Below are positions 46,235 through 46,470 of a DNA stretch of 64,000 bases, in pieces; position 1 is the first letter of the stretch; the number at the start of each line of letters is the position of its first letter. The stretch is from Escherichia coli (GTDB taxonomy: Bacteria > Pseudomonadota > Gammaproteobacteria > Enterobacterales > Enterobacteriaceae). A model generated the notes under the pieces. The model made no database searches, was not told where the DNA came from, and saw only the letters and a list, made by a program, of their open reading frames with translations. The position numbers and the translations under genes were made by a program. Location: the NCBI RefSeq assembly GCF_003018255.1, contig NZ_CP027440.1; one strand, written 5' to 3'.

Positions 46235-46333
46235 ATGACAGCCCTTCTACGAGTGATTAGCCTGGTCGTGATTAGCGTGGTGGTGATTATTATCCCACCG
46301 TGCGGGGCTGCACTTGGACGAGGAAAGGCTTAG
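46235..46333 (+). CDS. ilvL: ilvGMEDA leader peptide IlvL
   Basis: 32-codon ORF MTALLRVISLVVISVVVIIIPPCGAALGRGKA, dense in Ile/Leu/Val codons; not in the ORF track because it is short. Confidence 0.93.
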   Translation: MTALLRVISLVVISVVVIIIPPCGAALGRGKA

Positions 46334-46355
46334 AGATCAAGCCTTAACGAACTAA

Positions 46356-46389
46356 GACCCCCGCACCGAAAGGTCCGGGGGTTTTTTTT
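46356..46389 (+). terminator. ilv attenuator terminator
   Basis: GACCCCCG...CGGGGG hairpin followed by TTTTTTTT immediately downstream of ilvL. Confidence 0.85.
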
Positions 46390-46419
46390 GACCTTAAAAA
46401 CATAACTGAGGAGCAGACA

Positions 46420-46470
46420 ATGAATAACAGCACAAAATTCTGTTTCTCAAGATTCAGGACGGGGAACTAA
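46420..46470 (+). CDS. ilvX: Small protein IlvX
   Basis: 16-codon [19 protein letters not shown] ending 2 nt before the ilvG ATG. Confidence 0.7.

Follow-up and report, generated by a model that had tools for sequence, protein, structure and literature searches.

Taken as a whole, the region at 46100–46520 almost certainly represents the ilvLXGMEDA operon leader of Escherichia coli; positions refer to the window, the whole 64,000-nucleotide stretch of contig NZ_CP027440.1 that was analyzed. The attenuator in this leader and the small ORF ilvX that follows it are already known: the former has been textbook material since 1980 and the latter has been annotated since 2008. What would go beyond the annotation is confined to the evolution of ilvX, which does not look protein-like, and to the coupling hypothesis that results from it. 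The translation signals of ilvX are conserved while its residues change in a manner unlike that of a protein, a pattern that would favor translation in cis, coupled to ilvG, over a functional peptide. It suggests selection on ilvX translation in cis, most simply coupling to ilvG, together with an embedded nucleic-acid element.

The identity of the locus rests on sequence identity, annotation and profile matches. The region matches E. coli ATCC 11775, Nissle 1917 and other strains at 100% identity, and of 5426 complete E. coli genomes 5425 carry the 421-nt stretch, with the annotation order ilvL, ilvX, ilvG. Annotated ilvX was also seen in E. coli genomes sampled over the identity range. The near-universal occurrence in complete E. 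coli genomes excludes a chance pattern. RefSeq annotates ilvL, ilvX and ilvG at the locus, with yifB as the opposite-strand neighbor upstream and ilvM, ilvE and ilvD downstream. The product of ilvG, the first structural gene under leader control, scores 1072.7 bits with NF006524, the profile of the acetolactate synthase 2 catalytic subunit (cutoff 738). Rfam RF02744 aligns to 46164–46453 over its entire model (1–300 of 300; 158.8 bits, gathering score 88, E = 7.3e-50). This family was built from 'rev_39', given as the ilvG 5'UTR of Pectobacterium atrosepticum (PMC4710047). RF02744, Rev39_5p_UTR, is this leader as it occurs in a second Enterobacterales family, but the entry carries the name of a soft-rot 5'UTR element, and its label does not identify it as ilv attenuator and ilvX. 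The elements of the attenuator and the gene that it controls are as follows.

46235–46333, + strand: ilvL, a 32-codon leader ORF (ATG at 46235, TAG at 46331–46333; ORF listing, RefSeq and profiles).
46275–46303, + strand: protector hairpin 1:2, GCGUGGUGG (46275–46283) with CCACCGUGC (46295–46303), from the leader MFE.
46300–46366, + strand: antiterminator 2:3, GUGCGGGG (46300–46307) with CCCCGCAC (46359–46366), predicted fold.
46325–46345, + strand: small middle hairpin (AAGGCUU...AAGCCUU) between the ilvL stop and the terminator, predicted fold.
46354–46389, + strand: intrinsic terminator (attenuator, 3:4), a G+C-rich stem-loop and U-run, from the leader MFE.
46473–48119, + strand: ilvG, acetolactate synthase II catalytic subunit, intact, 548 aa (RefSeq and NF006524).

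The leader peptide, MTALLRVISLVVISVVVIIIPPCGAALGRGKA, was described in the earlier note as packed with Ile, Leu and Val codons, and these account for 15 of its 32 residues (4 Leu, 6 Val and 5 Ile). The regulatory run spans codons 4–20 and is mostly Leu, Val and Ile. IlvL is identical to K-12 b3766. It exceeds the cutoff of 59 for NCBIfam NF007744 'ilv operon leader peptide' with 81.9 bits, and that of 25 for Pfam PF08046 IlvGEDA_leader with 61.5 bits. Its core, SLVVISVVVIIIPPCGAALG, is kept across 69 Enterobacterales loci. These properties agree with the published ilv operon, in which a 32-aa leader peptide with 15 branched-chain residues provides attenuation control (PMC6123439); attenuation control of the operon is likewise described in PMC8406616. 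The E. coli K-12 ilvGMEDA attenuator goes back to Lawther & Hatfield 1980 and Nargang, Subrahmanyam & Umbarger 1980, as cited in PMC6123439 and PMC9299463. Compared to the K-12 leader, IlvL, the terminator and the antiterminator segments are the same and occupy the same position. Between the start codons of ilvL and ilvG a single base differs (46407, T here and C in K-12), while the promoter region upstream of ilvL has six substitutions (46137, 46138, 46170, 46176, 46177 and 46183). Unlike here, where ilvG is intact, the K-12 ilvG is a frameshifted pseudogene.

Folding places competing helices over this leader. The whole leader (46200–46392) folds at −70.2 kcal/mol, compared to −52.0 ± 3.8 in shuffles (z = −4.84), and none of 200 shuffles was as stable. 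The protector hairpin contains an additional inner 3-bp stem and reaches −15.5 kcal/mol alone. The antiterminator in isolation folds at −28.5 kcal/mol including the stems that it encloses, which are 46313–46317 with 46352–46356 and the hairpin of 46325–46331 with 46339–46345. The earlier note had also placed a GC hairpin and U-run at 46356–46389, and both are confirmed: the stem, 46354–46385, pairs 46354–46363 with 46376–46385 and has an inner stem of 46365–46367 with 46372–46374, and the U-run consists of eight U at 46382–46389. The terminator region (46352–46392) folds at −21.6 kcal/mol in ViennaRNA. Bases 46359–46366 are common to the antiterminator and the terminator, and bases 46300–46303 to the protector and the antiterminator. 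Because the helices overlap in this way, the three structures are mutually exclusive. RNA folding had been proposed as a check, and it does predict mutually exclusive hairpins, with 46300–46307 pairing to 46359–46366 as against the terminator.

A simple terminator scanner reported no hairpin on the + strand and only a partial match on the − strand. Two bulged C, at 46364 and 46375, may be the cause of the miss, which was set aside as an argument against the terminator in view of the ViennaRNA fold energy. Rfam Pseudomon-1/ErsA also aligned, with 18.8 bits (gathering score 50, E = 0.57), and was dismissed as a chance match to the terminator.

Dependence on the position of the ribosome was modeled with a nascent transcript ending at 46372, before the terminator 3' arm, in which the ribosome footprint was masked. 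With the A site on codons 8–12 or 16–18, in the Val/Ile run, the antiterminator was present. With the A site on codon 14 it was missing from the MFE of the nascent transcript, and on codons 20–26 it was lost. The nascent transcript without a ribosome had the antiterminator in its MFE too, and basal termination is therefore not reproduced by this simple model. Equilibrium folding of the full-length leader gave the terminator under every ribosome mask, and the switch was not visible. Because the full leader always folds into the terminator at equilibrium, the switch is kinetic and lies beyond proof by folding. Sequence elements and competing helices of an attenuator are shown in silico, and the nascent-transcript model suggests that they depend on ribosome position. 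The reading of the region as the classic ilv attenuator, already given in the earlier note, holds in both its names and its mechanism, as supported by the profiles, RefSeq and the competing helices.

The in vivo behavior of the ilv attenuator is taken from the classical literature. Its read-through responds to charged tRNA-Ile, tRNA-Leu and tRNA-Val (PMC6123439, PMC8406616). When these charged tRNAs are plentiful, the ribosome would reach approximately codons 20–26 and cover GUGCGGGG (46300–46307). The terminator hairpin 46354–46385 with its U-run would then form, and transcription would end upstream of ilvG. When any one of Ile, Leu or Val is scarce, the ribosome would stall within the Val/Ile run and open the 1:2 hairpin, leaving GUGCGGGG free for CCCCGCAC (46359–46366), the 5' arm of the terminator. 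Once the antiterminator has formed, RNA polymerase would continue into ilvX–ilvG.

Comparative support for these structures comes from a leader alignment of 69 Enterobacterales species, with the loci collected by a terminator motif. The terminator-state structure is 94.1% paired across the 69 species with 7 compensatory pairs, a result reached by none of 500 column shuffles. Most of the structural signal arises from the middle hairpin at 46325–46345, where both partners of five of the seven pairs have changed among the species, and from wobble changes within the 1:2 helix, in which 96.7% of cells are paired. The terminator helix is paired in 97.1% of cells, a value of little weight as the motif was used to collect the sequences; with the terminator motif being the search key, independent evolutionary evidence is limited to the 1:2 and middle hairpins. 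In all 69 species the antiterminator core helix is paired, with no variation in its sequence. Neither it nor the terminator helix showed covariation, since they never vary in these 69 species, whose loci were collected with the terminator motif. The antiterminator 3' arm is part of the search key, while its 5' arm lies outside it. That 5' arm, GUGCGGGG, is invariant in 69/69, including the synonymous third positions of its Pro, Cys and Gly codons; third-position entropy of ilvG in the same genomes is 1.15 bits. The invariant synonymous sites in GUGCGGGG point to a probable constraint at the RNA level.

The arrangement is familiar from the trp, his, leu, thr and ivbL-ilvBN attenuators, which share the leader ORF of end-product codons, the 1:2, 2:3 and 3:4 helices and the intrinsic terminator. 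Compared to those five, the ilv attenuator is multivalent, with three amino acids sensed by one 32-codon peptide, and has the extra hairpin at 46325–46345 inside the antiterminator loop. Its leader also has a second small ORF, reported to be translated, after the terminator. The ilvL stop is positioned 24–31 nt beyond segment 2; a ribosome at the stop leaves segment 2 uncovered, unlike in trp.

The second ORF, which the earlier note had counted as 16 codons between the attenuator and ilvG and named ilvX, is annotated as ilvX in RefSeq and encodes a peptide identical to K-12 b4669. The 16-residue sequence and the position are the same as those of K-12 IlvX; nothing differs. In an ORF listing with a 20-aa floor, ilvL was included and ilvX fell below the floor. 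The ORF and the signals in and around it are listed here.

46408–46413, + strand: ilvX Shine-Dalgarno GAGGAG (GAGGAG or GAGGAA conserved).
46420–46470, + strand: ilvX, 16 codons plus TAA (ATG at 46420, TAA at 46468–46470; RefSeq 'peptide IlvX').
46428–46442, no strand assigned: the most conserved block of ilvX, CAGCAyAAAAUnCUG, codons 3–8 (invariant or near-invariant columns).
46461–46466, + strand: ilvG Shine-Dalgarno GGGGAA, within ilvX codons 14–16 (GGGGAA or GGAGAA conserved).

The ilvX stop is separated from the ilvG ATG (46473) by 2 nt. Conservation of this ORF was scanned in one genome per species, and the search used the terminator motif rather than ilvX. The scan yielded 71 Enterobacterales ilv leaders besides that of E. 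coli, 58 from outside Morganellaceae and 13 from Morganellaceae. The in-frame conservation of the 16-codon ORF that the earlier note had proposed to examine is borne out outside Morganellaceae: all 58 loci, from Enterobacteriaceae, Erwiniaceae, Pectobacteriaceae, Yersiniaceae and Hafniaceae, have an ORF of 15–19 codons whose end falls between −4 and +3 nt relative to the ilvG ATG. Exactly 16 codons and the 2-nt gap (UAAcuAUG) occur in 51 of the 58, and Mangrovibacter and Rouxiella, read by eye, have 16 codons too. Two loci have lost the ilvX stop and show an AUGA overlap with ilvG, and one has a 3-nt gap. The start is ATG, or GTG in some Citrobacter, and is preceded by GAGGAG or GAGGAA. Length varies in whole-codon steps only, while the spacer between the terminator and ilvX is free (36 to 58 nt). 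In-frame premature stops were found in none of the 51 loci with the canonical ORF, where column composition predicts about 7, and the remaining 7 loci also lack them. In the +1 and +2 frames of the ilvX stretch, stops occur in 48/50 and 36/50 sequences. The ORF is absent from 13/13 Morganellaceae loci. In this family, seven Photorhabdus species have a relic without a start codon, ...YNRTKFCLTG*, that keeps part of the nucleotide block.

These observations bear on one rival explanation, in which the ilvX ORF is incidental and rides on a conserved nucleic-acid element, such as an Lrp operator, a GcvB/Hfq site or a hairpin masking a ribosome-binding site. We regard this as distinctly unlikely. 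A Shine-Dalgarno at the right distance, a start codon in all loci, a stop fixed 2 nt before ilvG, indels confined to whole codons and the lack of a premature stop in 58 loci all speak against it, while the retention of part of the block in Photorhabdus, where the start codon is gone, speaks for it. Translation of ilvX is also indicated by published work. An ilvX::gfp translational fusion is expressed (PMC9299463), and IlvX is one of the small proteins of Hemm et al. (2008, 2010), who detected the peptide according to the citing paper (PMC9299463).

Detection of the peptide, its annotation as 'peptide IlvX' and its fixed length of 16 codons favor a second rival, that IlvX is a functional 16-residue peptide acting in trans, perhaps on an Ilv enzyme or a membrane target, and that the ORF is kept for its product. 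We consider this unlikely, in view of how the codons change. Substitutions in ilvX were compared in 50 loci, with ilvG and ilvL from the same genomes as references. Synonymous changes make up 28% of the single-nucleotide codon differences in ilvX, compared to 95% in ilvG and 61% in ilvL. Entropy at the first, second and third codon positions is 0.67, 0.94 and 0.90 bits in ilvX and 0.12, 0.05 and 1.15 bits in ilvG, and the mean majority-residue fraction of ilvX is 0.60. The pattern expected of purifying selection on the amino-acid sequence of IlvX was thus not found in the 50 loci, with second positions being as variable as third positions. These values argue against a peptide acting in trans, and the K-12 RefSeq name of b4669 is still 'uncharacterized protein IlvX'. 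Three residues depart from the trend and are in favor of a peptide: Cys8 is invariant in 50/50 with synonymous variation between UGU and UGC, Lys6 is present in 47/50 and Gly15 in 49/50. Gly15 carries less force than its frequency implies, as it and codon 16 overlap the ilvG Shine-Dalgarno. Five features of ilvX are conserved, namely its ribosome-binding site, its start codon, its length, the place of its stop together with the ilvG Shine-Dalgarno embedded there, and one nucleotide block. In-frame conservation of ilvX does not amount to conservation of a peptide, given a substitution pattern unlike that of a protein.

The conserved block at 46428–46442 is a CAG-N9-CTG palindrome. Within it, third codon positions do not change, whereas changes at second positions replace the residue (codon 7, F/S/C/Y; codon 4, S/R; codon 5, I/T). 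This counts against a trans-acting peptide and, as a constraint on nucleotides rather than codons, it favors an incidental ORF. An RNA element and an Lrp operator are the candidates for its role. The block matches the Lrp consensus YAGHAWATTWTDCTR on the − strand with 2 mismatches, and Lrp is reported to repress ilvGMEDA by way of leader-region sites (Rhee et al. 1996, cited by PMC6123439), both of which fit an element carrying an incidental ORF. Against this, Lrp-like matches are not enriched across the window (11 compared to 7.3 ± 2.9 expected; 14 of 100 shuffles reached that number). With a match no better than expected by chance, and no site coordinates in the reviews, an Lrp operator in ilvX is no more than a putative one.

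A site for the small RNA GcvB was considered in the same way. The GcvB R1 duplex with 46412–46461 has a predicted energy of −24.7 kcal/mol, a marginal value at the 5.6th percentile of the window background, and duplex prediction with full-length GcvB was uninformative. While ilvX RNA is enriched with GcvB in RIL-seq-type data (PMC9299463), in keeping with an element beneath an incidental ORF, the expression of a published ilvX fusion is unchanged by GcvB (PMC9299463), which tells against it. With a marginal R1 duplex and an unresponsive fusion, ilvX was not retained as a GcvB target.

A hairpin over the ilvX ribosome-binding site was the third candidate. In E. coli, 46407–46417, containing this site, is predicted to pair with 46439–46449 (codons 7–10), with P(unpaired) of approximately 0. 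The pyrimidine tract of codons 8–10 has the ilvX Shine-Dalgarno as its predicted partner in the Escherichia/Citrobacter/Enterobacter type and the ilvG Shine-Dalgarno in Erwiniaceae, Dickeya and Cedecea, and this pairing by lineage again fits an incidental ORF. In an alignment of 51 species, the ilvX hairpin was not recovered by RNAalifold and had no covariation support; in a fixed register it is 78.4% paired, compared to 77.6% in column shuffles (53/500). Per-species shuffles were significant in 14/51 species for the ilvX site and 10/51 for the ilvG site. The consensus structure of RF02744 also places a hairpin over the ilvX start, one without covariation support in the 51-species alignment. 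A conserved hairpin masking the ilvX ribosome-binding site was demoted to a weak lead, its pairing being no better than that of shuffles, and the lack of covariation weighs against the incidental ORF. Elements of any of these kinds may, moreover, coexist with a translated ORF instead of replacing it.

The reading that we put forward is of ilvX as a 16-codon 'delivery' ORF, in which the act of translation is selected and is coupled to the ilvG start. We hold it tentatively, as plausible but short of probable. Read-through transcripts would carry ilvX with its own strong ribosome-binding site, and ribosomes would be loaded just past the attenuator. Those translating ilvX would reach the ilvG start and remove structure there, and with the ilvX stop 2 nt before the ilvG AUG they could be handed over to ilvG. 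Translation of ilvX would also melt the codons 8–10 pyrimidine tract, which may pair with the ilvX or ilvG ribosome-binding site. The frozen block of codons 3–8 (CAG-N9-CTG) would be a separate embedded site, either an Lrp operator or an sRNA/Hfq site. The ORF would date back to the ancestor of Enterobacterales, and Morganellaceae would have lost it, leaving the start-less relic in Photorhabdus.

Some observations run counter to this proposal. The invariant Cys8, with its varying UGU/UGC codon, and the near-invariant Lys6 could reflect constraint on the peptide, against a role in cis only. The predicted hairpin that would sequester the ilvX ribosome-binding site is without covariation support. 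Because Morganellaceae do without ilvX, it is not essential for ilvG expression. Like translationally coupled upstream ORFs, ilvX has its own Shine-Dalgarno and start and contains the downstream Shine-Dalgarno inside the ORF, with its stop 2 nt before the AUG or, in two species, an AUGA overlap. It differs from them in that coupling of ilvX to ilvG is one that we infer from sequence, and in that Morganellaceae express ilvG from a leader of this kind that lacks ilvX.

The locus serves as a positive control, in that two short ORFs and a regulatory RNA were recovered from raw sequence at exact coordinates. For IlvX, which remains 'uncharacterized' in K-12, the conserved translation signals, length and stop position, set against neutral-looking residue change, give a concrete coupling hypothesis that would be cheap to test. 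Coupling of ilvX to ilvG would matter in strain engineering, where 'ilvXGMED' cassettes are moved to produce valine and isoleucine (PMC13392391).

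The leader of ilvG and its flanks hold these elements, in window coordinates:

46070-46165, A+T-rich region upstream of the leader
46219-46238, mini-ORF MQEKTK* (six codons, ATG at 46219, upstream of ilvL)
46235-46333 (+), ilvL, leader ORF of 32 codons
46275-46283 paired with 46295-46303, protector (1:2) hairpin
46354-46389, attenuator terminator
46420-46470 (+), ilvX, ORF of 16 codons
46428-46442, CAG-N9-CTG palindrome inside ilvX
46473-48119 (+), ilvG

The A+T-rich region, with its long runs of A and T, is where the ilvGMEDA promoter has its IHF/UAS region. It is very rich in A+T. 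A promoter scan returned weak hexamer matches only, at 46123-46150. Over a stretch that begins 100 nt before ilvL and takes in the first 20 nt of ilvG, seven positions differ from K-12. Six of them (46137, 46138, 46170, 46176, 46177 and 46183) cluster in the promoter region, and the transcribed leader is nearly invariant.

The stop codon of the mini-ORF (TGA, 46236-46238) overlaps the ATG of ilvL. The equivalent upstream ATG of Citrobacter, Enterobacter, Lelliottia and Kluyvera shares the ilvL frame, and initiation there would give a leader of 38–39 amino acids. Within ilvL, Term-seq 3′ ends have been mapped to 46313 and 46319 (K-12 3950400 and 3950406; PMC7815308 supplement), 5–16 nt beyond the protector hairpin. 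These ends are distinct from the attenuator stop; they may reflect pausing of transcription or RNA processing.

Between the attenuator and ilvG, conservation is highest in the palindrome. Its sequence resembles the Lrp consensus, with a match that is statistically indistinguishable from chance. Photorhabdus loci from the terminator-motif scan of one genome per species (L006, L028, L039, L048, L062 and L079) retain a shortened ilvX relic without a start codon (...YNRTKFCLTG*), which lies in the terminator–ilvG spacer and ends ~24 nt upstream of ilvG, and the corresponding spacers of Proteus, Providencia, Morganella, Xenorhabdus and Arsenophonus contain no recognisable ilvX remnant. Together, these sequences suggest that ilvX was lost in Morganellaceae.

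The same scan also found the motif in non-Enterobacterales gammaproteobacteria and Parachitinimonas, with Val/Ile-rich leader-like sequence upstream. The loci are those of Rheinheimera (L017, L038, L040, L041 and L119) and Endozoicomonas (L027, L077, L109 and L112), as well as L024, L087 and L099. The combination of motif and leader-like sequence suggests that related ilv-type attenuators exist outside Enterobacterales, with the CCCCGCACCGAAAGG hairpin common to all.

Downstream of the leader, ilvG is intact (548 aa; NF006524 match, 1072.7 bits), whereas the K-12 MG1655 copy carries a pseudogene annotation. Judged from this reading frame, the strain should produce the valine-resistant acetolactate synthase II.
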